Positions 8,930 to 60,736 of a DNA stretch of 64,000 bases are shown here, one piece after another. Below the pieces are notes generated by a model, which saw only the letters and a program-made list of their open reading frames with translations, made no database searches and had not been told where the DNA came from. A program made the translations under genes and the position numbers. The stretch's first letter is position 1, and each line of letters begins with the position of its first letter. This DNA comes from an uncultured Candidatus Saccharibacteria bacterium (GTDB lineage Bacteria > Patescibacteriota > Minisyncoccia > 2-02-FULL-40-12 > GWA2-44-9): assembly GCA_964479835.1 (NCBI GenBank), contig CAYZRE010000002.1, forward strand, positions 24,987 to 88,986, given 5' to 3'.

Positions 8930-8954
8930 AAACGGCTCATCAAATGAGCCGTTT
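8930..8954. repeat. REP-like palindrome copy 1 (AAACGGCTCA-tcaaa-TGAGCCGTTT)
   Basis: perfect 10-bp inverted repeat; one of at least six copies of the same palindrome in the window. Confidence 0.6.
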
Positions 8955-9130
8955 ATCCCGTCTGCGCGAACGCCTGCGCTTGACCGAGTTCAAGGCGCAA
9001 GCGAGGACCGAACCGAGCCGTACTTATGATACGGCGAGGGAGGACCACAGTGAGCAACGAAGAAATCGGGTAAGCCCGCAGGGTGGGAACGCCACTCATT
9101 CCATGGTGGCGCCCACGCAGGCGTTCGCTG

Positions 9131-9697
9131 CTATTTCGCGCGCTCTACATACTGACCGGTCTCAGTATTCACGACAATGCTATCGCCTTCGTTGACGAAC
9201 AGCGGGACATTAATGGATGCGCCGCAATCAAGTTTCACCTGCTTACTGCCGCCGGTCGCGGTGTCACCGCGGATGCCGGGGGGAGCTTCGACGACTTCGT
9301 AGGTCATTTTGATGGGCAGAGTGATGGTGATGACCTTGTCGTTCCATGACAGTGCCTCGAGCACGGTGTTGGGTTTGAGAAACTTAGCCTGGTCCCCGAT
9401 GAGTTCTTCGGTGAGGAGAAATCGTTTCGAGGGGTCTTTCGGGTCGGCGAACCAGAACTCATCGCGATGGTTGTAGAGAAATTTCACTTCACGGCGGGCA
9501 ACATCCGCTTCTTCGAACACATCGGACTGTGCGAGATTGCGCTCAAGAACTTTGCCGTTGAGCAGATTGCGCATTCGAGTTTGCACAACCGGGCGCCGTT
9601 GCTGCATTTTCAAATGGTGTGTTTCCAAGACCATGAACGGCTGGTCTTCGTAGATGAAATAGGTTTTCGGGTGTAAATCGTTGACTCCGAGAGACAT
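9131..9697 (-). CDS. efp: elongation factor P
   Basis: 188 aa, EF-P three-domain pattern (KMQQRRPVVQTRMRNL, C-terminal OB folds). Confidence 0.9.
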   Translation of the reverse strand: MSLGVNDLHPKTYFIYEDQPFMVLETHHLKMQQRRPVVQTRMRNLLNGKVLERNLAQSDVFEEADVARREVKFLYNHRDEFWFADPKDPSKRFLLTEELIGDQAKFLKPNTVLEALSWNDKVITITLPIKMTYEVVEAPPGIRGDTATGGSKQVKLDCGASINVPLFVNEGDSIVVNTETGQYVERAK

Positions 9698-9723
9698 ATA
9701 AGAGCGGTTAAAATTGCCGATGT

Positions 9724-9751
9724 ATTGTAGCAGAATATGGGGATATGTAAA
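9724..9751 (-). promoter_or_regulatory. putative sigma70-type promoter of efp (TTTACA-N16-TACAAT)
   Basis: read on the minus strand, with the -10 about 27 nt upstream of the efp ATG. Confidence 0.45.
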
Positions 9752-9788
9752 GAAAAAAAGAAAACCGCCCGGCTAGAGGCGGGGCGGT
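9752..9788 (-). terminator. putative intrinsic terminator
   Basis: stem ACCGCCC/GGGCGGT followed by a T-rich tract on the minus strand, downstream of the 9773-10261 gene. Confidence 0.45.
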
Positions 9789-10261
9789 GTGGCAGGGGCA
9801 TGTCTGCCGATGAATGCGGGTCTGTAGATGAGAACTTTGATGCCCAGTATGTCGGCGTGCCTCTGAATCGCCGCGTGGCGTTTGCAGTTCTCACCATCGT
9901 CAGGGATATATACCTGATCAATGAAATTGCAAGACGCGAGCGTTTGCCAGAGCGCATCCGAGCTATCAGTGAGAGGCTCCAAAAACGGCGAGAACAGTGC
10001 GATGTCGCGAATGGTTTCGGGTTCGATGACGCTGACGCCCTCAACAGCGAGAACTGCAGTAAGCATGTCATACGCGACTTCCCAGACGAGACTTCGTTGC
10101 GCTTCGGGCATATGGGCCGGTTCCGAAATATATGCCCGTGGCCGCGGCAGGCGCGCGATGATCTCCATCAATACCTTTGACGCACGCTGCCTCGGTCGAG
10201 GCCCGTCGTCGGATATCACTCCCAGGCGGGTGAGGTCGGCCAGCTCGACCGCTTCAATCAT
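9773..10261 (-). CDS. hypothetical acidic protein
   Basis: RBS AGAGGTG 7 nt upstream of the ATG; lies between fmt and efp on the same strand; no family recognised. Confidence 0.4.
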   Translation of the reverse strand: MIEAVELADLTRLGVISDDGPRPRQRASKVLMEIIARLPRPRAYISEPAHMPEAQRSLVWEVAYDMLTAVLAVEGVSVIEPETIRDIALFSPFLEPLTDSSDALWQTLASCNFIDQVYIPDDGENCKRHAAIQRHADILGIKVLIYRPAFIGRHAPATPPRL

Positions 10262-10313
10262 AACTGCACCTCTATGAAGTACTGGCGGTAGTATGCGTCA
10301 CAGTCGCGATTAG

Positions 10314-11267
10314 TCAAACGAGAACGGAGTTGATGAGTTGCGGGTGTCCGTTGATGAAATCCCGGGCGCTTTGACGAGTTGAGCCTTCGAGTTGGATTGA
10401 TTCTAAGGTTAGAGCACCGAGGCCGCAGACAACGACGACCTGCGAGAATTGCAGGACAACGGTACCCGCGGGAGCCGAGGGTACCGGACCATCGAATGGC
10501 TGTGCGTGCAGGATATTAAGCGTTTTATCGTTCAATGTTGTCCAGGTACCGGGGTTTGCCGAAAGCGCACGGACGCGGTTGTTTATTTCCGATGCGGACT
10601 TCGTCCAATCAATTCGACCATCGGAACGCTCGAATTTATGCGTTGTTGTGGCAAGGTTATGATTCTGTTGCAGGGGTATGACCGCATCCTTCGTATACTC
10701 CTCCAGGGTGCGTGCCAAAAGGTCTGCACCCAACCGCGCCAGCTCATCTTCACACAGTAAGGCATCAAATCCCGCGGGAATCGCCCAGCTTTCCTGTGCC
10801 AACACCGGCCCGTGGTCCATGGTATCGTCCAGCAACATGATACTAACGCCGGTAGATGCACAGCCGTCGAGGATTGCTGTTTGAATAGGCGACGGTCCTC
10901 GATATGCGGGCAACAACGACGGATGAACATTTAAGAAGCCGAGACGAGGAACTTCAAGATACCGCTTCGGGATAAGTTTTCCGTAGGCAACCACGATGCA
11001 CAGGTCAGGTTTTAGATTCTCAAATAATGTCCAAAAGGCATCATCTTTCAGTGACGGGGGCGTGTGGATTGGCAGGCCGAGGTCAGAGGCGGCCGTTCGG
11101 ACAGGGCTTGGTGTCACGAGCATGCGCCGGCCGACAGGTTTGTCAGGAGCTGTGACAACGGCCTCGATGGGCCACCCGTCAGTCAGAAGGCGTCGGAGCG
11201 TCGGAACTGCGAATAACGGCGTGCCAAAAAACACGATGCGTAGTCGCCGCTCGATAGCGGCTGTCAT
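10314..11267 (-). CDS. fmt: methionyl-tRNA formyltransferase
   Basis: formyltransferase N-terminal domain (IVFFGTP..., HPSLLPAYRGPSPIQ) plus C-terminal domain. The ORF track extends to 11474, but the conserved N-terminus starts at the ATG at 11267. Confidence 0.85.
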   Translation of the reverse strand: MTAAIERRLRIVFFGTPLFAVPTLRRLLTDGWPIEAVVTAPDKPVGRRMLVTPSPVRTAASDLGLPIHTPPSLKDDAFWTLFENLKPDLCIVVAYGKLIPKRYLEVPRLGFLNVHPSLLPAYRGPSPIQTAILDGCASTGVSIMLLDDTMDHGPVLAQESWAIPAGFDALLCEDELARLGADLLARTLEEYTKDAVIPLQQNHNLATTTHKFERSDGRIDWTKSASEINNRVRALSANPGTWTTLNDKTLNILHAQPFDGPVPSAPAGTVVLQFSQVVVVCGLGALTLESIQLEGSTRQSARDFINGHPQLINSVLV

Positions 11268-11395
11268 CCGAACAATCGGTTTTGGTGCTTCTACGAAAAT
11301 CGCCATGCACGAAGTATACGCCGGCATGCAGGAACGAGACAATTGACAGATATGGAACGATATTGTACTATGACGCCAGTTCTGAGAGGAGAAAT

Positions 11396-11644
11396 ATGAG
11401 CGACCCGAGTATCGTGCCGTGGAGTCTTGTCTGGTGCGGTCTGATACTGGCCATCTGCGGTTTGGCTCTCGCACTGCACACCATCGACCATCCCAAGCAG
11501 AGCCCTCTCGCCTCTGTTGGCGCCGTGGGCGTGGTGTTGGGTATCGTCCTCATGGTCGTGCCACTACTGGTGAACGGTACCGTCATGCTCGAGAGAGCCC
11601 TTTGTGCAGCAGCGCAGAAGGCTTTCGCTCCTGCACGACCCTGA
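11396..11644 (+). CDS. small two-TM membrane protein
   Basis: 82 aa, RBS GAGGAG before the ATG, two hydrophobic helices, followed by a terminator. Confidence 0.45.
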   Translation: MSDPSIVPWSLVWCGLILAICGLALALHTIDHPKQSPLASVGAVGVVLGIVLMVVPLLVNGTVMLERALCAAAQKAFAPARP

Positions 11645-29134: not shown

Positions 29135-30222
29135 GTCGCGTGTTCTACCAGCATGCGCATGCGTTGCTCAAACTGTTGCGTCCCCCACTGCGCGGCGTGA
29201 GAACGGATTTTCTGGGCGTCGTAGCGGTCCAAATTGGTACGCAATCGTTTGATACCGTCCGCAAGAGCTTCGGGTATCGGGTCATCAAAGAATTCTCCGG
29301 TGACGCCTTCGAGTACCGTCTCGGTTGCGCCCCCGTGACGCAAGGCCAACACGGGCTTGCCGTGTGTCATAGCTTCTATGGCGGTCAGGCCCCAATCTTC
29401 TTCGTTGGGAACAATGACGGCGCGACAATGCTCATAGAGGCCGTCGAGAGCATCATCCGAAACCCATCCCGTGAAGGTAACATTGGTGCCTGCCCGTTGC
29501 TGTAGGCGCTCTTTCAGCGGTCCGTCGCCAACCACTACCAGTCGGTACTGCAGTTTCGCGAATGCATCAATCGCCATGTCGAGAGATTTGTGCGGAACCA
29601 TCCGCGACACAATGAGATAATAATCGTCGATAGATTCACGGGGTGCGACGGACTCGCTGACCGGCCGTGTGGGAGGAGGTACAACGACTGCCGAGCGCCG
29701 GTAATATTTCGCGATGCGCTTTGCAACAGTGTCGGAAATGGCAATCATTTCATCGGGGCGTTGGGCGGCGGCCTGATCCCAAGCGCGCAATGCGTGCCGG
29801 TAGAATCGTGACAGTAAGCCACTGCGCTCATAGGCGCCGTTTCGGTCCCACAGCATGCGCGCCGGGCTGTAGCAGTAACAGATATGGCGTGTACCGGGAC
29901 GAACAACGATGCCCTTAGAGAATACTACAGAGGACGAAATGACGGTGTCGTATCCGGAAAGGTCAAACGATTCGACGGCCGAAGGCATGGCGAGTGCCAG
30001 ATACGGATAGATACGCCACGCAAACGGTACCCGTTGAAGTCCCGATGCAATGACCGTGGCGTTGGGTAGCCACCGGTGCACCGTGGAAGGTTTGTACAGG
30101 AGTGTGTAGATGGGCGCTTGCGGCCACAGGCTATGCAGGGCAATCAGAACGCGTTCAGCGCCACCCACACCGACAATCCAGTCGTGTACGATTGCAATTT
30201 TACCGGCGCTTGGCGATGACAT
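29131..30222 (-). CDS. family 4 (GT-B) glycosyltransferase
   Basis: KIAIVHDWIVGVGGAERV N-terminus and a C-terminal nucleotide-sugar binding region. Confidence 0.75.
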   Translation of the reverse strand: MSSPSAGKIAIVHDWIVGVGGAERVLIALHSLWPQAPIYTLLYKPSTVHRWLPNATVIASGLQRVPFAWRIYPYLALAMPSAVESFDLSGYDTVISSSVVFSKGIVVRPGTRHICYCYSPARMLWDRNGAYERSGLLSRFYRHALRAWDQAAAQRPDEMIAISDTVAKRIAKYYRRSAVVVPPPTRPVSESVAPRESIDDYYLIVSRMVPHKSLDMAIDAFAKLQYRLVVVGDGPLKERLQQRAGTNVTFTGWVSDDALDGLYEHCRAVIVPNEEDWGLTAIEAMTHGKPVLALRHGGATETVLEGVTGEFFDDPIPEALADGIKRLRTNLDRYDAQKIRSHAAQWGTQQFEQRMRMLVEHAT

Positions 30223-37768: not shown

Positions 37769-38029
37769 CTATTTCTTCTTATAGATGACGCCACGGCCCG
37801 CAGAGCCAACCTGAACAATCTTGCCCTCCTTCTCCAGCTCGTCCAGATACCGCGTAGCGGTGGCATCGGATACCCCCAACGCCGTCTGCACCTGGTCGTT
37901 GAACACCTCAGTTCTGCCGTCAAACAGCGCCATCACCCGCTTGCGCGGTGGGACGCTCCCCGCCCCCGCACGCATGCCCGCCCAATACCCCGCCCCGAAA
38001 CCGACGAGTAAAAATATGAACCATGTCAT
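37769..38029 (-). CDS. small membrane-anchored protein with C-terminal winged-helix-like segment
   Basis: N-terminal TM helix; C-terminal ATRYLDELEKEGKIVQVGSAGRGVIY resembles a wHTH; preceded by GGAGGGGAGAGTAG. Confidence 0.45.
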   Translation of the reverse strand: MTWFIFLLVGFGAGYWAGMRAGAGSVPPRKRVMALFDGRTEVFNDQVQTALGVSDATATRYLDELEKEGKIVQVGSAGRGVIYKKK

Positions 38030-38058
38030 GCCTCCATGCTACTCTCCCCTCCTTAAAA

Positions 38059-38089
38059 CACAAACGGCTCATTTAATGAGCCGTTTGTG
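38059..38089. repeat. REP-like palindrome copy 2 (CACAAACGGCTCA-tttaa-TGAGCCGTTTGTG)
   Basis: 13-bp perfect inverted repeat between convergently terminated minus-strand genes. Confidence 0.6.
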
Positions 38090-40220: not shown

Positions 40221-40275
40221 AGCGCCTCCTCATGTAACGACACCCCCAACTCTACTCTCCCGCATCTCTCTCCGC

Positions 40276-40299
40276 AAACGGCTCATTATGTGAGCCGTT
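40276..40299. repeat. REP-like palindrome copy 3 (AAACGGCTCA-ttatg-TGAGCCGTT)
   Basis: same palindrome family, followed by CTTTTG. Confidence 0.55.
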
Positions 40300-40307
40300 C
40301 TTTTGAG

Positions 40308-40428
40308 GAGCGGCGCGGCCATGCCATTCAGCAGACCGCTTCGGAGGACGACTGGCCCGAGAACGCAGAAGCCCCGCCAGCAAGGCGGGGCTTCGTGTCT
40401 GTCCAGTGGTATGGCCGCGGAGCTCGAC
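40308..40428. repeat. structured ~120-nt intergenic element, copy B
   Basis: about 85 percent identical to copy A, with the terminal helix preserved through a wobble and a compensatory pair (CGCGGCCATGCC/GGTATGGCCGCG) and the identical inner 11-bp hairpin GAAGCCCCGCC-agcaa-GGCGGGGCTTC. Confidence 0.5.
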
Positions 40429-40436
40429 ACGAACAG

Positions 40437-40604
40437 CTAGCCGAGAAAGGCGAATAACTTATAGATTAGGAATGCCGGCCACACGAGAGCCTTGAGGAAA
40501 CCCACAGCGACCGACTCAAACCCAATCGATTGCTGGTAGAAATACACCGCTGCCCCGATAAATCCGAGAAAGTACACGCCCCCTCCGGTAGCTTCATTTC
40601 TCAT
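40437..40604 (-). CDS. tiny two-TM membrane protein
   Basis: 55 aa from the ATG at 40604 (MRNEATGGGVYFLGF...). The ORF track's longer version overlaps the upstream gene. Confidence 0.3.
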   Translation of the reverse strand: MRNEATGGGVYFLGFIGAAVYFYQQSIGFESVAVGFLKALVWPAFLIYKLFAFLG

Positions 40605-40614: not shown

Positions 40615-40824
40615 TTAATTAATAAACCAGAATGGGTTGCCGAATCGGAGCTTGTTGAGCAAATCAAATGTCGGCGACTGGTCGGTGGCCGCTGACGGGT
40701 CACCATTGCCCCACGCAACGAGAATGTTTGCCTCCCCTTTTTCGTAGTACCCCATCACCGCCGATACATACGCGGCGCCCAACAGTACCAGTAGCCATTT
40801 CAACTTCCTTGATTTGCGCCTCAT
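40615..40824 (-). CDS. small single-TM membrane protein
   Basis: 69 aa, preceded by GCGGGGGAGTAGA about 12 nt upstream of the ATG. Confidence 0.35.
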   Translation of the reverse strand: MRRKSRKLKWLLVLLGAAYVSAVMGYYEKGEANILVAWGNGDPSAATDQSPTFDLLNKLRFGNPFWFIN

Positions 40825-40857
40825 GTCCCCATTCTACTCCCCCGCCTCCCTCCCCGC

Positions 40858-40881
40858 AAACGGCTCACCGATGAGCCGTTT
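40858..40881. repeat. REP-like palindrome copy 4 (AAACGGCTCA-ccga-TGAGCCGTTT) plus adjacent half-copy at 40889-40900
   Basis: 10-bp perfect inverted repeat, with an extra ATGAGCCGTTTA half immediately after. Confidence 0.6.
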
Positions 40882-40897
40882 AATTTCTATGAGCCGT

Positions 40898-41293
40898 TTA
40901 GTTCGTAAATGAAATCGTCAGCTGCAGCGCAGTGGCAAAGAGTCCCCAGAATAAGTACGGCAGAAGAAGCCAGAAGGTTGGACGCAGTACTCGCCATGCT
41001 CGCCATTGAATATACGATAGCGATACGAGCACGAGCAGAATATCCAAAGATGCCGGCCACAGCGGTGTCAGACCTAATTGAATAGGCGTAAACAAAAGAT
41101 TGGCAATCCAATTAATGCCAAACGCCCAGAGGAATCCGCGAGGTGCGCGCCCCTTCCATACCGCATACGCGGTGTACACGGTTGCTATGATGAAAAGAGG
41201 ATAGATGATGCCCCAAGCAACGCCGAACAGCCATGCGGGCGGGGCCCATGGAGGAAGCAGGATGCTCTGATAGAACTCCGCGTAGCTCAACAT
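40898..41293 (-). CDS. tspO: TspO/MBR-family tryptophan-rich membrane protein (short)
   Basis: Trp-rich 131 aa with LPPWAPPAWLFGVAWGIIYPLF matching the TspO N-terminal motif. Confidence 0.6.
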   Translation of the reverse strand: MLSYAEFYQSILLPPWAPPAWLFGVAWGIIYPLFIIATVYTAYAVWKGRAPRGFLWAFGINWIANLLFTPIQLGLTPLWPASLDILLVLVSLSYIQWRAWRVLRPTFWLLLPYLFWGLFATALQLTISFTN

Positions 41294-41370: not shown

Positions 41371-41910
41371 TCAGGGCTGGAATAATTCTTCGGGCATCAG
41401 ACGCACCTCACGCACCCCCGAAAATTGCTTCGCCGTGTTTTCGATCTGCGCCCGTAAGATGCTCACAAAACATGAACCGCCACCCGTGCGATTGTCGGGG
41501 TCATTGAATGTCAGCGTCAGAACACCGCCAGTCAGCGATGCCGCAGTAAGGGTGACGCGCTTAAGTGGAAGTTCGGAGACCATGCCCTGGGCGCTTTCGG
41601 CTGATGTGGGTTTGGTTATCAGGAGAAGCCGAATCGTGTCCTGGATAGGGGTATTCGTGAACGGAATTTCACGGGTAGCGGGCATCGAACCGCCGGTACT
41701 GCACATGATATTTCCGGACGCATCCTTATCGAGCTCGGGATTGTAGAAGAAAAGCTTCACGCTCCGCATCGCAACCGGAGATGACGACGGTACCACACTC
41801 GGAATCAGTGCACTCGGAAGCCCGCTATAATATCCCAAAGCGATTGCGACGGCAATCGCAATCACAACAAGTACTCCCGCCATCTTTATTTGCTTTGAGA
41901 TTCGCTTCAT
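41371..41910 (-). CDS. GerMN-domain lipoprotein-like protein
   Basis: N-terminal TM/signal, LFFYNPEL...LTLTFNDP pattern typical of GerMN domains. Confidence 0.55.
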   Translation of the reverse strand: MKRISKQIKMAGVLVVIAIAVAIALGYYSGLPSALIPSVVPSSSPVAMRSVKLFFYNPELDKDASGNIMCSTGGSMPATREIPFTNTPIQDTIRLLLITKPTSAESAQGMVSELPLKRVTLTAASLTGGVLTLTFNDPDNRTGGGSCFVSILRAQIENTAKQFSGVREVRLMPEELFQP

Positions 41911-42008
41911 ACCCCAATGTTACTCTCCCACCTTCCTCCCCGCAAACGGCTTCCGCAAAAGAAAAACCGGCAGGCGGAGGCGCCTGCCGGTCCAAACGTT
42001 GCGAAATT

Positions 42009-42326
42009 CTACTTCTGCTTGTCGATGGTCCAGATGTAGCCGGCGGATGTCAGGTCGATGACCTTCCGGGCGCGCGACCGACCGTCGTCGTACTCGGCGA
42101 AGAGCGAGTGCTCTCCCACCTCGTATCTGACGTTGCACTCGCGTTGCGGGGTGGCACGGCAGGTCTCCTCGTCGCCGTCCACCGAGAACACGAGCGGGTC
42201 GGCCGTGTTGTTGATGAACCTGATCAGCCCCGTGCTCTGGGCCTGCACCGGCGGCGGCTGTACCGCGAACCCCGCCATCAGCGCCAGCAGACCAATCGAC
42301 AACACCATCAAGACTGCCTTTCTCAT
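42009..42326 (-). CDS. small secreted hypothetical protein
   Basis: signal peptide MRKAVLMVLSIGLLALMAGFAVQPPPVQA; RBS AAAGGAGG. Confidence 0.5.
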   Translation of the reverse strand: MRKAVLMVLSIGLLALMAGFAVQPPPVQAQSTGLIRFINNTADPLVFSVDGDEETCRATPQRECNVRYEVGEHSLFAEYDDGRSRARKVIDLTSAGYIWTIDKQK

Positions 42327-42409
42327 ACGACCTCCTTTGTTACTGCGAGTTCACACTATAACACACTAATTCCCTCCCCGCAAACCGACCATTTTCCAAA
42401 AAGCAGCGG

Positions 42410-42961
42410 CTATTTCTGATTGATAGCTAGAATTTCGTTAACGCGCTTGAGAACTAGATCGCCATCTAACATCTCGCGTCCTTTAATGCGAAGTAATGGA
42501 AGGTTAGCCGACTCAAGAATACGCTGAACCTCAATATCGCGTTGGATTCTATCTGGCCGCTCATGTGAAGGGTCATCTAGCTCAATCGCTAGTACCGTGT
42601 GGAGACTATTTTTCTCACACAATACGTAATCAACTGACTTTTCGTCGATATGCCGAAACGCACCAAACCAGCTCTGGCCCTTAATCTTGTGCTCAACAAT
42701 CGATGGCAAGTGGATTTGCGGGAATACCAAAAAACGGTCGCCGATTATCCGCGTAAGAAGGCGAAAGAACTCCTGCTCTGTATGCGTCATAACAGAAGCT
42801 TTTCTCCCGTAGAGATATTTATACGGCTGTGCCTTTTGTGTCTTTCTACGAAATAGGCCTACCAGCACCACGAGCACGATAAGGCCAAGAATAATCGGCC
42901 AAAACGGCTTCACGAACGTGAAGAACGCATTCACTATTTGCCAAAAATCGAGATTGATCAT
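42410..42961 (-). CDS. DUF2726-like (NERD / PD-(D/E)XK-related) membrane-anchored protein
   Basis: N-terminal TM, then YVLCEKNSLHTVLAIELDDPSH core typical of DUF2726; start overlaps the RM gene stop (ATGA); AT-rich codon usage. Confidence 0.55.
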   Translation of the reverse strand: MINLDFWQIVNAFFTFVKPFWPIILGLIVLVVLVGLFRRKTQKAQPYKYLYGRKASVMTHTEQEFFRLLTRIIGDRFLVFPQIHLPSIVEHKIKGQSWFGAFRHIDEKSVDYVLCEKNSLHTVLAIELDDPSHERPDRIQRDIEVQRILESANLPLLRIKGREMLDGDLVLKRVNEILAINQK

Positions 42962-45900
42962 TTTATTTTGTCGATTTCTTCCATGATACGGTCGGTTTCG
43001 GTGAGCGCAACAATAATTTTTTGATAATGTGAGATATCATCAAATGACAATTTCATACCACGTCGATCTTTCAACCACTTCTGAGCTGGCAAGTAGCTAC
43101 CCATAACATACCCAAACGCTTCTTCGGATATATTTTGAAAACTTTGCGTTTCATTAATAAATACTTCACCCTTCCTGAATATAGGGAACTTCGGACCAAC
43201 GATGTTACTGCCGAGTGCTGGAAACTTGGATGTGTAGTTACCGATCTCGGGATGTTCTAGTAGATGATAGAGGCGCAGGTCTCTGCCTTTTTGGACGAGC
43301 TTCAGAAATGTCTCCTTATTTGACGGGTACGGAATACGCGGGAAGTCCGTCTTCAGGAATTCTTGGTATTTTTTTCGATAATTTAGTGAGTATAGCGTCG
43401 CATAGATGTAGTCAAGGATATCTTCTGACGATATGGCACCGACAACATTTTCTATTTTGCTCACTATTTCTTTCCTTAGATTAGAGGTTCGTGTATTATC
43501 GTCAGAGTAAAGATATAGCGGGAAGACGTAGCCAGCCTCCTTAGTTCGATTCGTTAGGAGGCACATGTCAATTAGACCCCTTCCAATGAAGGCGTGGTTA
43601 AATTCATTGACTGCCAGCTGGCGAGGAACGAGAAGTGCGATGTTGTCTCGTTCGAGAAGATGCTTCATAATCGCATACCGGGGACGAGCAATGAAACCCT
43701 TATTTTCGTGGGTATAGTATATCCATCTAACATCGAATGGACGGTAAGATATTTGCCTCAAATGAGATTCGGAGAAATTTCTTTCTACATCGTTCTTTGC
43801 GTTCGGCAGCTGCCAGCTACTAGTATCTTTCGGAATGCCGTACTTCTGGCGCAATGCGACAACATCCAAACTCTTAAAATCTAGAACACGCTGTTGGAGC
43901 ATTTCTTTTCTTTGATCGATGGCCAACTCATCCCTGAACGTTGCAATTCCAACACTGGACTCTAAGAATAATTCATCGAGACTGAATCCTCGTCTGTATT
44001 CTTCTCTGCCCTCCATGTTCTTATCCACAAAGAAATACATCTGGTCATCGAGTGACACCTCTTGCCAGTTTGGTTTATAAGAATCTAGGGCAGTAAATTT
44101 CGAACGACGAGAGCCGAATAAGTCGTCATGATATACTCTGGCCGGTTGATTGGCCTTCTTGTCTCCTGTTTTCACGGCAATCAAGATTGCTACTCCCTGT
44201 TGAATATCAAAGACGTTTTCATCTTTGTTGCCATCGGGAGAAAGTTCCTCCTTTTTTAGATTGCCATGGAGATCGAGTACATAGATTGAATCGAAAGTTT
44301 TTGTCAGATGCCATCGCATACCACGAAACGTTGGGTTATCAATGTAGCCGTGAGCTGTGATCATGGCTACGATGCCCGTACCAGTTTTCTCAATAAAACT
44401 CTCTGCTAAACGGATAAACTTAACATAATCATCGTTCAGCCATTTTGAATTCCGCTCTTGTAGCTTCATTCTCCCGCCAGGCTCTACTTTATACACATCA
44501 TGCCCCGTATACTGCTTATTTTGAGACTCACCTTTATATGGCGGATTGCCAATAACGACCATAACCGGCAACTCTTCTTTTACTCGTGAAGCACCAATAG
44601 ACTCTTCGGTAAGCGAACGCATCAGTCCGAATTCAAGCTGTGGTTGCACGGCGCCCGCGGGTTCCAAAGAATTTGTAAGATACACACCGATTCTGTCGTT
44701 TGGTTCGGCACCTGTTTCAGTCAGAACCATGGATAACTTGAGGTGTGCGACAATATAACTTGCGACGAGAAGCTCGAATCCGTGCATTCGTGGAAGTAAG
44801 TGTTCATTTACATAACTTGGCCATTGACCTTTTTGACTCTCAAATGACTCGTATATCTTGTGGATAGTCTCATTCAAGAATGTTCCGGTACCAACAGCGG
44901 GGTCCAAAATCTGGACACGGTGAATCTGTTCCTTAACTTTTTTAAACTGGCCTGTTTTATTAGTCTCCTGAATAGAAATCTCATGCTCAACCTTAGAAGT
45001 GTCTGCCAGTCCTTTTGAGAGACCAAAATCGCGACGAAGAATCTCGTCCACCGATCGAACGATGAAACGTACAATAGGCGGGCGAGTATAAAATACGCCA
45101 CGATCTAACTTCTGCCCTTTATCGTATTCTCCCAAAAAGTCTTCATAGAAATGAACAACGGGATCAAGTGCTTCGGGGTCCTTACCCCACAAACCTACTT
45201 GCCTGAAGCGATCCTCCATAATTCCCTTGACATCAGCTGCGGTAAATATTAAAGATAAATCGGAAACGATATAATCAAGTCTTGAGTCAAACTCTGGGCC
45301 AGAAATATGATTAAAGAACTGCCTTAAAAAGGGGTTAGAGCGTGGCACAAGGCCTTGTGCTTCCTGTCTTGAAAAATTCCCTGGCGTTTTATCGTAGAAG
45401 CGAGCTACAAATAGGCCATATACTAATGTTTGGGCATACATATCCGCAAATTGCTCGATCGTTAGGTCGTGTATAAGAAGACGCTTAAAAACGTCGAATT
45501 GTTCAAGAAGCGATCGACTTTTCTCTCCACCTTCTTTGCTATAGATGACAATATTTTCTCGAAGACGACGCCCTCGACCACCCATGATTCGAGACAATTT
45601 TTCTGCAGAGGTTATCGTTTGAGCTCCGAGTTCAAGAAACGCTGAAAGTTCGCGGACTAGTAACTCATATGCCTCCGCGTGAAATACCAATCCCTCTCCA
45701 TGACGAGATGCGATAATGATTTTTTCTCCATAGGGTTCGCCGTCTCGGAAAAATCGAAATTCAATGTAGTTCGTCAATATAAGCTTCGGATATCCTAGAT
45801 ACCTCTCGAGTTGTTCCGATGTCTGGACTTTATCCAAGTTTACAGCGAGGTCCTTCGTTTCAATGTAGGCAAGAGGAACTGCCCCTTTTTTAACAATAAA

Positions 45901-46071
45901 GTCGGGCGCTCCAAACTGAGAACGCTTTGGCTCATTAATTATCTGGCAGTTCTCGCATGTAGTCCCCAGAAACTCTTCAAAGGGTGCGCGATAAGAATGC
46001 TCACCAGCCTCGCCAGTTGCAAACTTGCCGCCGATTTTTCCGAGATACTCCGCGACTTTATGTGCAGTCAC
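42958..46071 (-). CDS. Type IIG restriction-modification enzyme (fused PD-ExK endonuclease, gamma-class N6-adenine MTase and TRD; MmeI-like)
   Basis: 1037 aa; N-terminal PD-(D/E)XK (GAPDFIV...AYIETKDL), MTase motif I ILDPAVGTGTFL and motif IV VIGNPPYKG in gamma order, long C-terminal TRD; apparent GTG start; AT-rich. Confidence 0.75.
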   Translation of the reverse strand: MTAHKVAEYLGKIGGKFATGEAGEHSYRAPFEEFLGTTCENCQIINEPKRSQFGAPDFIVKKGAVPLAYIETKDLAVNLDKVQTSEQLERYLGYPKLILTNYIEFRFFRDGEPYGEKIIIASRHGEGLVFHAEAYELLVRELSAFLELGAQTITSAEKLSRIMGGRGRRLRENIVIYSKEGGEKSRSLLEQFDVFKRLLIHDLTIEQFADMYAQTLVYGLFVARFYDKTPGNFSRQEAQGLVPRSNPFLRQFFNHISGPEFDSRLDYIVSDLSLIFTAADVKGIMEDRFRQVGLWGKDPEALDPVVHFYEDFLGEYDKGQKLDRGVFYTRPPIVRFIVRSVDEILRRDFGLSKGLADTSKVEHEISIQETNKTGQFKKVKEQIHRVQILDPAVGTGTFLNETIHKIYESFESQKGQWPSYVNEHLLPRMHGFELLVASYIVAHLKLSMVLTETGAEPNDRIGVYLTNSLEPAGAVQPQLEFGLMRSLTEESIGASRVKEELPVMVVIGNPPYKGESQNKQYTGHDVYKVEPGGRMKLQERNSKWLNDDYVKFIRLAESFIEKTGTGIVAMITAHGYIDNPTFRGMRWHLTKTFDSIYVLDLHGNLKKEELSPDGNKDENVFDIQQGVAILIAVKTGDKKANQPARVYHDDLFGSRRSKFTALDSYKPNWQEVSLDDQMYFFVDKNMEGREEYRRGFSLDELFLESSVGIATFRDELAIDQRKEMLQQRVLDFKSLDVVALRQKYGIPKDTSSWQLPNAKNDVERNFSESHLRQISYRPFDVRWIYYTHENKGFIARPRYAIMKHLLERDNIALLVPRQLAVNEFNHAFIGRGLIDMCLLTNRTKEAGYVFPLYLYSDDNTRTSNLRKEIVSKIENVVGAISSEDILDYIYATLYSLNYRKKYQEFLKTDFPRIPYPSNKETFLKLVQKGRDLRLYHLLEHPEIGNYTSKFPALGSNIVGPKFPIFRKGEVFINETQSFQNISEEAFGYVMGSYLPAQKWLKDRRGMKLSFDDISHYQKIIVALTETDRIMEEIDKIK

Positions 46072-46076: not shown

Positions 46077-46110
46077 TTCAAATCTACCAAAAAACCGGCC
46101 TTGTGGCCAG
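46077..46110. repeat. ~34-nt repeated upstream element, copy 1 (minus-strand reading CTGGCCACAAGGCCGGTTTTTTGGTAGATTTGAA)
   Basis: near-identical to copy 2 at 46601-46632; lies immediately 5' of the RM start codon. Confidence 0.5.
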
Positions 46111-46119
46111 TTCTCGGTG

Positions 46120-46143
46120 AACGGCTCACCGAATGAGCCGTTT
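46120..46143. repeat. REP-like palindrome copy 5 (AACGGCTCA-ccgaa-TGAGCCGTT)
   Basis: same family as the other copies, between the RM gene start and the upstream gene's stop. Confidence 0.55.
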
Positions 46144-46600: not shown

Positions 46601-46632
46601 CAAATCTAACAAAAAACCGGCCCCGTGGCCAG
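46601..46632. repeat. ~34-nt repeated upstream element, copy 2
   Basis: minus-strand reading CTGGCCACGGGGCCGGTTTTTTGTTAGATTTG, about 5 mismatches to copy 1. Confidence 0.5.
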
Positions 46633-46670
46633 TCGTGGAGTAGGGTCGGTAATGTAGTAGGGCAGCTCGT

Positions 46671-47837: not shown

Positions 47838-48068
47838 GATGGGATGAGCCTCTATATACTAAAATTTACCATTTTTGTGCCAGCAGGGACAAGGGGACAA
47901 CTAAGATGCGCGTGGCCATTTGCGAGCGCACCACCCGGGCCCTGGCATGCTCGCTTGCTGTACCAAAGCCGAGCGAACAGCGATGGCGACGTTACGCACC
48001 GGGAGCGGACAGGGCTTGGGTGGTAAGCGAGAACAGAAACCCCGCCGATTGGCGGGGTTTCTTCTGCG

Positions 48069-57125: not shown

Positions 57126-57535
57126 TATGCGATGGCCGTTTTTCGGCCGGAGGACGGAGAAAGCATTGGTTTGACTTCCAGTGTACGGGCACCCAGCGAT
57201 ATGCCGTCCAGCGAGAGCAGGAACGAGTAGGTACCGGGAGCAGAGAACTGCATCTGCTCGAAGTTCGCAATCACCTGCCAGTTGCCTGAATTGGTACTGA
57301 CCGGCAGTTCGGTGTGGGCGATTTGTGTTCCCGTCGGGTCCATCACATCGGTACGCAAGACATGACTGCCTCCGGTATCAATGTCGAAGTTCACCACGAG
57401 CGCAAAGCGCGGGTACATGAACGGAAACTTGTCCGCATTAATCTGGGTGAACACATTGATGAGGTTGAGATTGTTCGTTCCCGCCGATAAAAACGCTTCC
57501 CGGCACATGATAATGAAATGGGGTTGGATATTCAT
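57125..57535 (-). CDS. hypothetical beta-rich protein
   Basis: 136 aa, overlaps alaS stop and dus start (operon), no family recognised. Confidence 0.45.
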   Translation of the reverse strand: MNIQPHFIIMCREAFLSAGTNNLNLINVFTQINADKFPFMYPRFALVVNFDIDTGGSHVLRTDVMDPTGTQIAHTELPVSTNSGNWQVIANFEQMQFSAPGTYSFLLSLDGISLGARTLEVKPMLSPSSGRKTAIA

Positions 57536-59208
57536 GACACGGTTGCGCGGATACGCCGGACGCCGGCGGATACAGCCTCTTCTTTGGTTATCTTAAACTT
57601 CCCTATCACGCCAGTGCGCTCAACATGCGGTCCACCGCAAAATTCTTTGGAAAAATCCCCTACGGAATACACGTCCACCATATCGGGATATTTTATCTTG
57701 AAGAAGTGCAGAGCTCCGGTTTTGTGAGCCTCATCTTTCGGAAGGGTCTTTTTCTCAACCGTTATATCTTTTTGGACAACTTCGTTGACGAGTTTTTCTG
57801 TTTCCTGAACTTCCTCCGGCGTCATCTTGCGGGGAAAGCTGAAATCAAAGCGCAAGCGCTCGGTGGTGATATCAGAACCCGCTTGTGTTACTTCGTCTCC
57901 TAATACTTTGCGCAGAGCTGCCTGCAACAAGTGCGTAGCCGTATGGAGTCGCGTTACTTTCTGAAGCTCCTCCGCATCCGCAGCTTTCAACTCGCCGTTA
58001 TCGAAGAAGAGCCCGTGTCCTCCGAATTTCTTCTCCGACCCAGCGCGCGATTTTGCCTGATGTTCTTTAAACTTCTCGTCGAACGCTTCACGGGTCAGTG
58101 GTGTTGCTTTTTCGCCGGCTAAATCTTTTATGACCTCAAAGGGCAACCCAAAGCTCTCATAGAGCTTGAACGCAGTGTCGGCATCGATGATGGAGAGGCG
58201 ATCTAACTCCCGCTGTCCTTGTGCGAGAGTTTTTTCAAATTTTTCCGCCTCTGCTTTGACCACCGGAAATATCGTATCCCGGGAAAGCTCGGGGTAGATA
58301 TTCTGGTACGCATCAATCACAAGGCCAATCCGAATAAAAACTTCATTACTGAAACTTCGCAGGTGAACGATCATTCTCCGCACTAGCCGTCGGAGGACAT
58401 ATCCCTGGTCTTTATTCGACGGACGGACACCACCGGAAATCATAAAGGCACATGCTCGTGCATGGTCGGCGATAATCCGCTTTGTTGTATCAGCAATAGA
58501 ATCGGGCAGGCCCGCGGTGATAGACCCGAACAAATCGGTCTCAAATATATTTTTCTTCTTCTGCACTACCATCGCGAGGCGCTCCAGTCCCATGCCGGTA
58601 TCGATGCCCGGGATTTTGAGGGGCTCCAGGGATTTATCTTTTTTCTGGAAGTACTGGTTGAACACCACATTCCAGATTTCAAGACCGTCTACATAGATTT
58701 CCGTGGTTGGTCCGCAGGGACCTTCATCTCCTGTCGGCCCCCAGAAATTATCTGCCCGACCGGACTTCTTGATGGTGATATCCGGTGCAACGGTCTTCCA
58801 GATTTCTTCGGACTGGGTATCAGCCGGCACATCGCCATCGCCGCCGAATACAGTCACATAGTCAATCTTCAAGTCCATCTCCTTGGTGATAAAATCGTAT
58901 GCGTATTGGATTGCTTCTTGCTTGAAGTACCCGCCGAAAGAAAAGTTGCCGAGCATCTCAAAGAATGTCAGATGGCTCTCATCCCCCACCTCATCGATAT
59001 CGGATGTGCGAATGCATTTTTGGATGGAAGCGACACTTTGCGCAGGGGCGAGCTTGGGATTTGTGTAGTACGGCTTAAACTGTTGCATACCGGCCGTGGT
59101 GAACAACACCGACGGGTCGTCGGGCAATAACGGTGAGGAGTCCACCCAGAGGTGTTCCTTAGATTCCATGAATTTTCGAAACTTTTCGCGTATCTCCTGA
59201 TGAGTCAT
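57532..59208 (-). CDS. alaS: alanyl-tRNA synthetase, short form (catalytic + tRNA-recognition + editing-like region, no C-Ala domain)
   Basis: class II AlaRS motifs (FTTAGMQQF, MLGNFSFGGYFK), HxxxH (HTATHLL) and CGGPHV editing-site signature; 558 aa. Confidence 0.85.
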   Translation of the reverse strand: MTHQEIREKFRKFMESKEHLWVDSSPLLPDDPSVLFTTAGMQQFKPYYTNPKLAPAQSVASIQKCIRTSDIDEVGDESHLTFFEMLGNFSFGGYFKQEAIQYAYDFITKEMDLKIDYVTVFGGDGDVPADTQSEEIWKTVAPDITIKKSGRADNFWGPTGDEGPCGPTTEIYVDGLEIWNVVFNQYFQKKDKSLEPLKIPGIDTGMGLERLAMVVQKKKNIFETDLFGSITAGLPDSIADTTKRIIADHARACAFMISGGVRPSNKDQGYVLRRLVRRMIVHLRSFSNEVFIRIGLVIDAYQNIYPELSRDTIFPVVKAEAEKFEKTLAQGQRELDRLSIIDADTAFKLYESFGLPFEVIKDLAGEKATPLTREAFDEKFKEHQAKSRAGSEKKFGGHGLFFDNGELKAADAEELQKVTRLHTATHLLQAALRKVLGDEVTQAGSDITTERLRFDFSFPRKMTPEEVQETEKLVNEVVQKDITVEKKTLPKDEAHKTGALHFFKIKYPDMVDVYSVGDFSKEFCGGPHVERTGVIGKFKITKEEAVSAGVRRIRATVS

Positions 59209-59798: not shown

Positions 59799-59831
59799 GG
59801 TGCACCTCCTCGGCGTGTTGTACCACAGATA

Positions 59832-59948
59832 TTACACGGTCGTCAATCGCGATACCCAACGGATGACGATGACGCAGAGTGCGACGGGCAAACTGAATAC
59901 GAATATCCAGAAGAATACAAACTTTTTTTCATCGCCGGAAAGGGCCAT
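59832..59948 (-). CDS. possible 38-aa single-TM micro-protein
   Basis: ATG 1 nt after the upstream TGA stop (TGAtATG); hydrophobic; speculative. Confidence 0.25.
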   Translation of the reverse strand: MALSGDEKKFVFFWIFVFSLPVALCVIVIRWVSRLTTV

Positions 59949-59949
59949 A

Positions 59950-60414
59950 TCAGCGGATATACCAATCATACGGCGTGATACCGAAGGTTGTCTGTCCGCT
60001 CGTTACGGTCACCGGGATTTTCGTGTGGTCCGTACATTCGATATTCAGTCCGCACATCACATACTGGGTGTAGTATGCGCGGTAATCGCCCATATCACTC
60101 CCCATCTCCGACGGGTCCTTCACACGGGCAGATATATAGTACTTTCCGGCCGGTACTTCGATGCTCCACGAGGGGGACAGCAGTTCGTTGTCACCTGCGG
60201 GAGTTTCTGTGCAGTATTCTGAACCGCCATCGACCGGCTCGGCACAGACGATTTGTACCGGTATGTACTCACTCGGGTAGTTTGTCGTCCCTTCGATACT
60301 GCCCGGCATGGCCGTTGCATCCTTCGGAGGCGCAAGAAAATACCATGCTCCGGCGGCAAGGGCTACAAGCACGAGGACTGCTACGAGCGAATAGGTGAAT
60401 ATGCGTGAGGTCAT
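59950..60414 (-). CDS. hypothetical membrane-anchored/secreted protein
   Basis: N-terminal TM/signal, beta-rich body with several Cys. Confidence 0.5.
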   Translation of the reverse strand: MTSRIFTYSLVAVLVLVALAAGAWYFLAPPKDATAMPGSIEGTTNYPSEYIPVQIVCAEPVDGGSEYCTETPAGDNELLSPSWSIEVPAGKYYISARVKDPSEMGSDMGDYRAYYTQYVMCGLNIECTDHTKIPVTVTSGQTTFGITPYDWYIR

Positions 60415-60466
60415 TGCGGATGTGTCAGAATTCTGTTATAATTTCTCCGTCCTTGCAAGTGGATAT

Positions 60467-60538
60467 GGGACCTATGGTGAAATGGTATCACAACACTCTG
60501 TGGCAGTGTGGTCACGGGTTCGATCCCCGTTAGGTCCC
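60467..60538 (+). tRNA. tRNA-His (anticodon GTG)
   Basis: manual cloverleaf: G-1, acceptor GGACCTA/TAGGTCC, D-arm GTGA-aatggta-TCAC, anticodon arm ACACT-ctGTGgc-AGTGT, T-arm ACGGG-TTCGATC-CCCGT, discriminator C; CCA not encoded; TGTTATAAT extended -10 about 25 nt upstream. Confidence 0.8.
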
Positions 60539-60593
60539 CAAATACTAAAGCACCCCCGCCTGCCGAGGGTGCTTTAGTATCCTGGAGATGCTG

Positions 60594-60608
60594 AACGGGG
60601 ATCGAACC
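60594..60608 (-). repeat. inverted partial copy of tRNA-His T-arm (GGTTCGATCCCCGTT, 15/15)
   Basis: exact 15-nt match to tRNA-His positions 60516-60530 in opposite orientation; flanks do not fold into a complete tRNA. Confidence 0.5.
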
Positions 60609-60711
60609 GCCGGAGTGATGTGCCGACAACAGTCGGCACCACGAGGCGGGGCCCCGAATGCAAAGTCGGTCGACGGACCGACTTTGACATGAGGGCGAGA
60701 CCCGTACATTT

Positions 60712-60736
60712 AAACGGCTCACCGAATGAGCCGTTT
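60712..60736. repeat. REP-like palindrome copy 6 (AAACGGCTCA-ccgaa-TGAGCCGTTT)
   Basis: identical core to copies 4 and 5. Confidence 0.6.

Follow-up and report, generated by a model that had tools for sequence, protein, structure and literature searches.

The window, the entire 64-kb stretch of DNA analyzed here, comes from an ultra-small, Paceibacteria/Yanofskybacteria-like member of the Patescibacteria (CPR) and carries a family of palindromes with the consensus (A/G)AACGGCTCA-N4-5-TGAGCCGTT(T/C). On balance, the family probably constitutes a dispersed, sequence-conserved, bidirectional terminator or 3'-end hairpin that occupies the terminator position directly past stop codons. There are six complete copies, one extra half copy, and two remnants. 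The hairpin spans ~25 bases and is near-identical among copies, and the whole element is a perfect palindrome of 23–31 bp. The position, structure, repetition, and promoter overlap of the family are established, as is a core common to Patescibacteria. The features are as follows.

8929–8955, no strand assigned: copy 1, TAAACGGCTCA-TCAAA-TGAGCCGTTTA
38059–38089, minus strand: copy 2, CACAAACGGCTCA-TTTAA-TGAGCCGTTTGTG, with a 13–14-bp stem
40276–40300, minus strand: copy 3, GAACGGCTCA-CATAA-TGAGCCGTTT (minus-strand reading)
40809–40865, minus strand: reference copy of the 57-nt repeat D2 (hairpin arm, -35, G-rich spacer, -10, start codon)
40858–40881, minus strand: copy 4, AAACGGCTCA-CCGA-TGAGCCGTTT
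40890–40899, minus strand: additional right-arm half copy (minus-strand reading AAACGGCTCA), separated from copy 4 by 8 nt on its upstream side
41935–41956, minus strand: remnant GCGGAAGCCGTTTGCGGGGAGG, with 9 nt from the end of one arm joined to the promoter block common to these sites
42373–42392, minus strand: remnant GGTCGGTTTGCGGGGAGG, a degenerate arm end plus the same promoter block
46119–46143, minus strand: copy 5, AAACGGCTCA-TTCGG-TGAGCCGTTC (minus-strand reading)
60711–60737, no strand assigned: copy 6, TAAACGGCTCA-CCGAA-TGAGCCGTTTA

A pattern search of the window located the exact pattern AAACGGCTCA-N3-7-TGAGCCGTTT at 8930–8954, 38062–38086, 40858–40881, and 60712–60736, and 100 shuffles of the window sequence gave 0 matches. 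Two further copies are one outermost base off, at 40276–40300 (right arm ...GTTC) and 46119–46143 (left arm GAACGG...). The palindrome 10-mer with at most one mismatch occurs 19 times in the window versus 4.9 expected. Perfect stems are 9–14 bp long (11–12 bp at 8929–8955, 13–14 bp at 38059–38089, and 11 bp at 60711–60737), and the family supplies 6 of the ~14 distinct perfect hairpins in the window with a stem of 9 bp or more. The two arms mirror each other perfectly, and the flanks read T(A/C)AACGG...CCGTT(T/G)A. These data confirm the claim of the initial annotation that near-identical inverted repeats are dispersed here in at least six copies. The loops of copies 1–6 are, in order, TCAAA, TTTAA, TTATG, CCGA, CCGAA, and CCGAA, so the loop ccga(a) is common to copies 4–6 as it had stated.

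The window ORF map places all copies between genes, and every copy lies 0–140 nt 3' of a stop codon, with the TAA stop overlapped in two cases. The location at gene 3' ends that was first proposed is therefore upheld. Copy 1 lies between the convergent genes for a 205-aa ORF (plus strand, end 8786) and efp (minus strand, end 9131). Copy 6 is also in a convergent setting, between tRNA-His (60468–60539, plus strand) and a 30-aa membrane-like ORF (60735–60827, minus strand) whose TAA stop forms part of the hairpin. A second, unrelated hairpin is found at 60661–60686, between tRNA-His and copy 6. Copy 2 begins 25 nt past the stop (38111) of a cytochrome-b5-domain gene, and copy 3 comes after a small membrane ORF and a ~140-nt repeated structured element. 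Copy 4 starts 17 nt past the stop of the TspO gene, the TAA of which (40898–40900) overlaps the half copy at 40890–40899. A 151-aa ORF stops at 46157, 14 nt ahead of copy 5, and a Type ISP restriction-modification gene begins 48 nt downstream of the copy, at 46071. Copy 5 is followed by a small U-tract hairpin and a -10 TAGATT. Other genes of the same minus-strand array end in canonical U-tract terminators (41993–41964, 41364–41340, 39610–39587, and 46634–46615), and each gene of the array ends in one or the other, palindrome or U-tract terminator. These data assign the terminator position to the family. Among 72 copies in Patescibacteria loci, an ORF stop is no more than 30 nt away for 33 and directly adjoining for 7; the gene contexts are tandem in 35, convergent in 12–13, and truly divergent in ~2, all by crude longest-ORF calls. 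The copies between divergent gene starts (L015 clear, L070 probable) count against the terminator reading.

RNA folding predicts stable hairpins. For segments of 54–70 nt that contain one, the folding energy is about -18 to -25 kcal/mol, and the z-scores relative to shuffles range from -2.3 to -6.0. The 56-nt segment of copy 1 has a dG of -22.1 (plus strand) and -20.5 (minus strand) kcal/mol, with z-scores of -5.6 and -3.8, respectively. The outer stem pairs show covariation. At position -1/+1, 76% of copies form a pair, with all four Watson-Crick types represented, and the excess of pairing over the control extends to ~6 bp.

Copies 2, 3, and 4 are each fused to the -35 of the promoter that follows on the minus strand, which is of the leaderless type. 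The shared promoter is sigma-70-like, with a -35 TTTGCG, a 17–18-nt spacer, and a -10 TAGAAT/TAGAGT/TAACAT/TAGCAT, and the next minus-strand genes are mostly leaderless. The 3' end of copy 2 overlaps the -35 TTTGTG (38059–38064) in the promoter of an 86-aa wHTH gene (-10 TAGCAT at 38036–38041, ATG at 38029). Copy 3 overlaps a -35 TTTGCG (40273–40278) that is followed by a -10 TAGAGT at 40249–40254. Copy 4 overlaps a -35 TTTGCG (40855–40860), and the ATG (40824) of a 69-aa ORF comes 6 nt after the -10 TAGAAT (40831–40836), a leaderless layout. The G-rich segment that the initial annotation described as abutting the palindromes is present, but it lies outside the palindrome and is the spacer of the sigma-70-like promoter for the next minus-strand gene. 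Further copies of D2 are at 40227–40283 and 41895–41951, and diverged relatives are at 38027–38064 and 42324–42390. D2 is a promoter-coupled terminator module that is itself repeated, as three full copies and two remnants. The partial copies noted earlier at ~41935 and ~42372 are real, but each consists only of the last bases of one arm (AAGCCGTTT and GGTCGGTTT) joined to the promoter-like block GTTTGCGGGGAGG. At 41935–41956 the ordinary U-tract terminator (41993–41964) stands in the palindrome's place, and the promoter has a -10 TAACAT (41917–41922) and an ATG at 41910. The promoter at 42373–42392 has a -10 TATAGT (42355–42360), a leader with a Shine-Dalgarno sequence, and an ATG at 42326. 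In the promoter-coupled terminators of Fletcher et al. (bioRxiv 10.64898/2026.08.19.745784), a stem-loop adjoins the following tandem promoter, either directly upstream of its -35 or overlapping it, and copies 2, 3, and 4 resemble them in the overlap of terminator stem-loop and following -35. The published ones (Acinetobacter, E. coli, and other species) are unique, whereas the coupled 57-nt module of the window recurs.

The overlap of three copies with a -35 hexamer raises the idea of a palindromic operator: a dimeric regulator would bind the duplex DNA and control the promoters just past it. One candidate regulator would be the 86-aa wHTH protein, whose gene directly follows copy 2. LexA at yobI/ruvA is a reported case of a transcription factor whose site is also a terminator palindrome, and the L015 copy of another genome sits between divergent gene starts. 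However, copies 1, 5, and 6 are not placed on a promoter, and the downstream genes are unrelated. The half-site spacing is 4–5 bp among window copies and 3–6 bp over all copies, a range that a rigid dimer would not tolerate, and the outer-pair covariation indicates pairing rather than base readout. We consider an operator role quite improbable.

The bidirectional terminator module of the initial annotation is the best functional reading of the family, and the hairpins probably have termination or stabilization activity. Transcription of the element from either strand would give a stable 10–14-bp hairpin. This hairpin would end or stall transcription, protect the mRNA 3' end, and insulate the next transcription unit. 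At copies 2–4 its last bases would double as the start of the -35, giving a promoter-coupled terminator. The proposed setting is a compact Patescibacteria genome with many short, individually promoted, often leaderless genes.

The stable stem-loop close behind a stop codon is that of a classical intrinsic terminator, but the tail is not. A canonical U-tract (~7–9 nt directly 3' of the stem) is absent from the family copies, which have a UUU tail and then mixed sequence, and a terminator consensus scan of the window copies flags only copy 4, on the non-coding strand. There is no directional T bias in 37 tandem contexts (downstream T 2.8/8, 35%, versus upstream A 3.0/8; p = 0.48), and no G-U excess at non-Watson-Crick outer positions on the sense strand (11 GU versus 18 AC). 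The latter two results reveal nothing specific to direction-specific selection at the RNA level, and a DNA-level palindrome fits the symmetry equally well. Rfam at gathering thresholds returned tRNA-His as the sole match in the whole window, and permissive E-value scans over copies 1–5 gave nothing credible.

Canonical bidirectional intrinsic terminators share with the family a location between genes in convergent or tandem arrangement. In 5426 of 5426 E. coli genomes and in other enterics, the identical stem, with TTTATTTTTT behind it, is found between rpsQ and rplN at the S10 operon end, and ordinary bacteria therefore use this stem at a terminator-like site. The enterobacterial hairpin has the same 10-bp stem and shares with the family a stable GC-containing stem with A's before and U's after. 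In enterics it occupies one orthologous site and carries a long T-tract, whereas in Patescibacteria the copies are multiple, their contexts are unrelated, and each has only 2–3 U's. The sharing of the core with the enterobacterial S10-operon terminator stem is a coincidence.

By description, the closest functional analogue of the family is the mycobacterial TRIT motif (Tuberculosis Rho-independent terminator), an abundant hairpin of Mycobacterium that is conserved in both sequence and structure (Gardner et al. 2011, PMC3152330). TRIT is palindromic and therefore mostly bidirectional, clusters tightly at gene termini, frequently overlaps stop codons, and has no classical U-tract; its authors inferred an unknown factor that reads the sequence (PMC3152330). 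The family likewise appears as a sequence-conserved palindromic hairpin at or overlapping stop codons, without a classical U-tract. TRIT is confined to Mycobacterium (PMC3152330), whereas the family core is common to several Patescibacteria classes of very different GC, which sets the two apart by description.

The initial annotation also likened the palindromes to REP/BIME elements. REPs stabilize mRNA, enhance termination, and differ between relatives through presence/absence turnover. Like the REP/BIME elements of Enterobacteriaceae and Pseudomonas, the family consists of short repeated extragenic palindromes, mostly past gene 3' ends and without a U-tract, with six copies and a half copy in 64 kb and more in other genomes. 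Membership in this class is not supported. REPs are imperfect and oriented with a GTAG/CTAC head, whereas the family is perfectly symmetric, lacks this end motif, and has a core conserved far beyond the species. BIME clusters of alternating orientation are absent; the copies are solitary, with only an occasional extra half copy or tandem 8-mer. The broader idea is that the palindrome is REP-type mobile DNA, a single-stranded hairpin cut and pasted by a Y1 enzyme (RAYT or IS200-IS605-like) or another hairpin-specific enzyme whose gene would lie elsewhere in the genome, with terminator activity as a side effect. The common loop CCGA(A) of three copies suggests recent copying, and the strand symmetry without a U-tract or G-U bias is in keeping with a DNA element. 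Extra half copies and tandem units adjoin copies in several genomes, and some copies extend into long perfect palindromes whose arms reach 35 bp. Close relatives have the hairpin at non-orthologous sites or lack it (none in 16.8 kb of L118, none in L128 and L129, and one copy after dnaJ in L127). However, a Pfam comparison of ~50 window ORFs found no Y1 transposase (RAYT, PF01797), the gene of which usually has REPs on its flanks, and no other recombinase. The 347 ORFs lying no more than 2.5 kb from copies at 65 loci contain no recurrent protein family. Clean insertion boundaries or target duplications are not definable in the relatives compared, and REPs are usually confined to one species, in contrast to this core, which does not vary from class to class. 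On the window and loci covered, a mobile element is unlikely.

The window also invites comparison with gene cassettes. Four copies and two remnants punctuate a same-strand array of small, mostly uncharacterized genes at 37.4–46.6 kb, and the hairpin could be an integron attC-like recombination site next to which small accessory genes with their own promoters are inserted. In L127 the copy occurs together with an additional 81-aa ORF that sits as an insertion between dnaJ and the DUF481 gene, and Type ISP restriction-modification genes are flanked by copies in two unrelated genomes. However, the inserted L127 segment bears a copy at one end only, copies 1 and 6 lie among housekeeping genes, and no integrase or recombinase, tyrosine recombinases included, was found in the window. 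An attC is a 55–140-bp imperfect palindrome with R''/L''/L'/R' boxes and extrahelical bases beside an IntI integrase, whereas the element here is perfect and 23–31 bp. A cassette site is very doubtful.

CPR bacteria possess genes for competence and type IV pili and rely on nucleotides taken up from outside. This background would suit inverted pairs of DNA uptake sequences that favor the uptake of kin DNA by competent CPR cells. Single DUS/USS copies are highly over-represented, inside genes too. A fixed 9–10-mer in terminator stems is the classical DUS/USS signature, as in Neisseria and Haemophilus terminators (Kingsford et al. 2007, as cited in PMC3152330), and in both systems and the family each arm of a terminator-like hairpin is a fixed oligomer. 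In contrast to the strong excess of single DUS/USS copies, single 8-mers outside the hairpins are near chance, with 2 observed and ~2 expected in the window and 29 observed versus 16 expected in 539 kb; several of the 29 adjoin copies as half copies or belong to longer hairpins as arms. The density is low (~1 per 10 kb in the window and at least 3 loci of the GTDB-wide scan in a complete 721-kb genome), and no intragenic copies were found except coding coincidences. An uptake signal is highly improbable. The symmetry and the lack of a U-tract, GTAG, nearby RAYT, and half-site excess make the family REP-like only descriptively and not DUS-like.

The terminator reading leaves one property to explain. 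Plain terminators need no fixed sequence, so the invariant core is unexplained by a terminator role alone. The 9-bp core dominates a GTDB-wide scan, with ~64 of 117 loci in Patescibacteria among the matches listed. These loci represent at least 3 classes with a GC of 30–64%, several genomes are multi-copy (again among the matches listed), and the genes flanking the copies are unrelated between loci. The likeliest explanation for the constancy of AACGGCTCA would be recognition by a conserved protein or copy-and-paste spread; we know of no description of either for this motif. The presence of the core in many distantly related CPR genomes suggests that something in the cells reads its sequence. 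We tentatively raise the possibility that the AACGGCTC(A) palindrome serves throughout Patescibacteria as a sequence-specific punctuation mark read by a putative conserved trans-acting factor. If so, the reader would be a hairpin-specific termination or RNA 3'-end factor, or a single-stranded DNA hairpin enzyme that spreads the palindrome, and the palindrome would have been kept or exchanged across Saccharimonadia, Paceibacteria, and Dojkabacteria/WS2 despite their range in GC.

A search of the window with AAACGGCTCA-N3-7-TGAGCCGTTT identified exact matches at 8930, 38062, 40858, and 60712. None of 100 dinucleotide-preserving shuffles of the window contained a match, which rules out a chance origin of these copies. 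Allowing one mismatch added the hairpins at 40276–40300 and 46119–46143, each off in the outermost pair only, and a solitary extra arm (the half copy) at 40890–40899. The stems are perfect and 9–14 bp long, and family members account for 6 of the ~14 distinct perfect hairpins with a stem of ≥9 bp in the window. The loops of copies 1 to 6 are TCAAA, TTTAA, TTATG, CCGA, CCGAA, and CCGAA. These pattern searches bear out the initial annotation in its coordinates, the half copy, the shared loops, and two partial copies. The RNA folds stably on both strands (−18 to −25 kcal/mol for 54–70-nt segments; z-scores −2.3 to −6.0), and the family hairpins match no known RNA family in Rfam.

Family hairpins in the window, numbered along it.
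Copy 1, 8929–8955: between convergent genes, a plus-strand ORF of unknown function and the minus-strand efp
Copy 2: starts 25 nt 3' of the stop of a cytochrome-b5-domain gene
Copy 3: 3' of a small membrane ORF and of a ~140-nt repeated structured element
Copy 4: 17 nt 3' of the TspO gene, whose TAA stop falls within the extra half copy
Copy 5: 14 nt 3' of a 151-aa ORF and directly 5' of a Type ISP restriction-modification gene
Copy 6: flanked by tRNA-His and a membrane-like ORF of 30 aa; the hairpin includes the TAA stop of this ORF

The other genes of the minus-strand array that holds copies 2 to 5 end in ordinary hairpin-plus-U-tract terminators, at 41993–41964, 41364–41340, 39610–39587, and 46634–46615. 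Thus, every gene is followed either by a canonical terminator or by a family hairpin, and at 41935 the former replaces the palindrome ahead of the same promoter block. These data show that the family takes the terminator position in the array. On the minus strand, copies 2–4 run straight into a promoter, and the end of the hairpin arm supplies the TTT of its −35 element. This promoter consists of a −35 (TTTGCG/TTTGTG), a 17–18-nt G-rich spacer, a −10 (TAGCAT/TAGAGT/TAGAAT), ~6 nt, and the ATG. The G-rich segment that the palindromes had been described as abutting is present at copies 2–4 and is the spacer of the next promoter. The two partial copies, at ~41935 and ~42372, are the same promoter block keeping just the end of the hairpin arm. 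Within the window, the resulting 57-nt module (arm end, −35, spacer, −10, start codon) is confined to 38–42.4 kb. Its layout is that of promoter-coupled terminators, in which a stem-loop lies directly 5' of, or overlaps, the next −35 (bioRxiv 10.64898/2026.08.19.745784).

A second terminator-promoter module, unrelated to the family, is a 33-nt repeat at 46079–46111 and 46601–46633 (91% identical). A small hairpin plus T-tract precedes a TAGATT −10 in this repeat, which flanks the 151-aa ORF on both sides and sits in a low-GC (44–47%) restriction-modification island at 42–48 kb. Another repeat of ~110–140 nt occurs as two copies 3 kb apart, at 37300–37443 and 40300–40445, with 78% identity overall and a 37-nt core that is 97% identical (37351–37387 versus 40354–40390). 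It contains an 11-bp GC hairpin, GAAGCCCCGCC-AGCAA-GGCGGGGCTTC, inside a long outer stem, GCGGCCATACC...GGTATGGCCGC. Both copies are 3' of minus-strand genes (SWIB and the small membrane ORF), and the second adjoins family hairpin 3. Rfam gave no credible match to this repeat (best rnk_pseudo, E = 0.025), which may be an ncRNA, a 3'-UTR element, or a MITE.

The nearest named relatives of the window DnaK (4010–5893) are Candidatus Yanofskybacteria and Paceibacterota at 74–84% identity, and synteny with relatives extends over cysS, Nramp, hrcA-grpE-dnaK-dnaJ, efp, fmt, def, priA, and gltX. This places the window in a Patescibacterium (CPR). The window has a GC content of 54%, with a low-GC stretch at 42–48 kb. 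At many window genes a TANNNT −10-like hexamer ends 6–7 nt 5' of the start codon, without a Shine-Dalgarno sequence (for example at 2777, 15442, 30200–31207, 36909, 38029, 40824, 41910, and 60827). Leaderless-type promoters therefore look common, which suggests that leaderless mRNAs are frequent in this Patescibacterium. A CIRCE-type operator variant, TTGGCACTC-N9-GAGTGCCAA, lies at 2733–2759, immediately 5' of hrcA-grpE-dnaK, and is an ordinary HrcA heat-shock operator; the locus L127 from a relative carries the classical CIRCE TTAGCACTC...GAGTGCTAA at 6159–6185. The alanyl-tRNA synthetase (57532–59208) is just 558 aa long and has the catalytic core and the second additional domain without the usual long C-terminal region, a truncation typical of reduced genomes.

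The distribution of the hairpin was determined with the pattern AACGGCTCA-N3-6-TGAGCCGTT in GTDB, using one genome per species (596 Gb), and at least 117 loci matched. By record title, from which the taxonomy was taken, Patescibacteria contribute ~64 of the 117 listed loci (~55%). They include Saccharibacteria, Paceibacterota, Yanofsky-, Zambryski-, Jorgensen-, Wolfe-, and Jacksonbacteria, WS2, and unclassified "Patescibacteria group" MAGs, and their GC contents range from 30 to 64%. Several genomes have multiple loci among the matches listed, with at least nine in DASPGX01. The Enterobacteriaceae account for ~22 of the listed loci, all at one orthologous site, rpsQ-rplN at the end of the S10 operon, where a long T-tract comes after the hairpin; 5426/5426 complete E. 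coli genomes have this hairpin. Comamonadaceae-like genomes form another set among the listed loci, and these betaproteobacterial matches are single copies, one per genome, with a CAATG-type loop in common. The idea of a universal element, raised by the enterobacterial and betaproteobacterial matches, was rejected on the basis of this single orthologous enteric site and the single betaproteobacterial copies. The rest of the listed loci are singletons, scattered and flanked by A/T-tracts. By chance, 596 Gb should yield about 35 matches, a number that rises once ordinary terminator stems are counted. Random matches and ordinary terminators explain the scattered singletons outside the CPR; they leave the CPR share and the multi-copy genomes unaccounted for. 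In a metagenome scan, the matches listed fell into the same three classes. Matches inside ORFs in L037 and L088 are a coding coincidence (N-G-S-P-Y-E-P-L in paralogous ~570-aa genes) and were left out.

The invariance of the 9-bp core is built into the search pattern, and near-variants are rare: among the 64 loci there are ~4 more hairpins with 1–2 changes, one of which carries a compensatory change from G-C to C-G. Of 71 copies, 76% are paired at position −1/+1, with all four Watson-Crick pair types represented, and 70% at position −2/+2. Outer-stem pairing exceeds the shifted control out to ~6 bp. By crude ORF calls, the copies lie mostly in tandem (35) or convergent (12–13) contexts, with ~2 truly divergent cases upon manual inspection; by the same crude calls, 33 of 72 are ≤30 nt from an ORF stop and seven abut it. 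The flanking genes differ between loci and are unrelated.

In 37 tandem contexts oriented by transcription, the T content 3' of the hairpin (2.8/8) matched the A content 5' of it (3.0/8; p = 0.48), and neither a canonical nor a directional U-tract was detected. There was also no G-U excess on the sense strand at non-paired outer positions (11 versus 18). The lack of T-tract asymmetry and of G-U bias means that the element is symmetric, and RNA-level selection in one direction is not singled out. Single half-sites are near chance (29 observed versus 16 expected), and several of the 29 are adjacent half copies or arms of longer hairpins. This lack of single-site enrichment counts against a DNA uptake sequence, which was rejected. 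Half-sites are 3 to 6 bp apart, depending on the copy, and this variation speaks against a rigid dimeric operator.

A resemblance to REP/BIME elements had been noted at the outset, and REP elements are the next-closest analogue of the family after TRIT, a terminator motif of Mycobacterium; two REP-defining features that were tested are lacking. The GTAG motif is absent from the family copies, the scanned window ORFs include no Y1 transposase (RAYT), integrase, or recombinase, and no recurrent protein family neighbors the copies in 65 loci. Within the window and locus flanks scanned, these results argue against a classical REP-RAYT system.

A link to restriction sites was also considered. The arm sequence TGAGCC fits TnAGCC, which the Type ISP enzyme LlaBIII recognizes, and in two genomes Type ISP genes are next to family copies. 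The Type ISP/MmeI-like gene of the window (42958–46071) starts 48 nt 3' of copy 5, and in L047, a Saccharibacteria locus, a fragment with the Type ISP C-terminal domain only (2893–4005; 42% identical) begins 83 nt away from a family hairpin. The link was set aside because a 5-base match is weak and restriction-modification specificity is not expected to persist phylum-wide. The match to LlaBIII may well be a coincidence.

The position of the element differs among relatives at 91–93% DnaK identity. L118, from a relative with 93% DnaK identity, has 0 copies in 16.8 kb and an empty efp site; in L127, a single copy coincides exactly with the dnaJ stop, adjoining an extra 81-aa ORF; and more distant relatives have 0 copies in ~21 kb. 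Orthologous conservation among relatives was thus not seen. The differing sites, together with the shared CCGA(A) loops, indicate a family shaped by turnover or copying and not by inheritance of orthologous terminators.

Two noncoding segments of the window have counterparts in other genomes. The block at 8975–9090, between copy 1 and the efp stop, starts TTGACCGAGT and is conserved in L118 (10700–10815), where the surrounding sequence is not; it has no Rfam match at E ≤ 1 and may be a small RNA or regulatory region. The plus-strand segment 47900–48065 ends in a canonical bidirectional terminator (48035–48062) shared with rpsI. Its positions 47955–47999 are 95% identical to L128 2621–2665, whose setting, between rplU and recR, is different, and 47922–48004 is 83% identical to L218. 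It has no significant Rfam family match and is a candidate conserved small RNA.

In other Patescibacteria, long perfect palindromes surround the family core, with arms of 21–35 bp, loops of 3–4 nt, and locus-specific outer arms.

Long perfect palindromes around the family core.
L095, 625–697
L107, ~6594–6663
L008, ~5942–5996
L071, 7079–7124

The locus-specific outer arms suggest templated copying of the flank as the way in which these palindromes lengthen. Extra half copies or tandem units lie beside the hairpin in the window, L018, L036/L039, L047, L057, and L148. Direct tandem repeats of the 8-nt unit AACGGCTC feed into the hairpin, with three in L036 (3060–3103), of which L039 41–90 is the reverse-complement equivalent. 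L047 4693–4727 has 1.5 units per arm (AACGGCTCAACGGC...GCCGTTGAGCCGTT), and the arms ending ...CTCAAC in many Saccharibacteria copies look like 1.4 units. The perfect symmetry could also be kept up by template-switch "correction" of quasi-palindromes.

The evidence best supports a family of dispersed hairpins, conserved in sequence, that would serve as bidirectional terminators or 3'-end structures. This retains the bidirectional terminator module of the initial annotation, with termination activity itself inferred from position and structure. Such a hairpin would insulate tightly packed transcription units; one local sub-family has it fused to the following promoter. The closest analogue is TRIT, with 147 palindromic, sequence-conserved copies close to stop codons, for which its authors also proposed a sequence-reading factor (PMC3152330). 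A conserved hairpin-binding factor or horizontal spread of a trans-mobilized element may explain why the core is constant from class to class. Literature searches returned no description of the motif or of CPR-specific terminator or REP families, and we file the family with the TRIT/REP-like extragenic palindromes. Its conservation across classes is what could make it more than another of these.

The CPR/Patescibacteria are a large part of bacterial diversity, with ~1-Mb genomes, and are mostly uncultivated. To our knowledge, almost nothing is known about how they delimit transcripts. A fixed-sequence hairpin that lies on stop codons, is fused to promoters in three copies, and recurs across distant CPR lineages would be a simple, searchable marker for transcription-unit ends in these genomes, and would also point to a lineage-specific sequence-reading factor. 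Should the hairpin instead prove mobile, it would represent a rare repeat family amid otherwise streamlined genomes and mark recent gene-cassette turnover.
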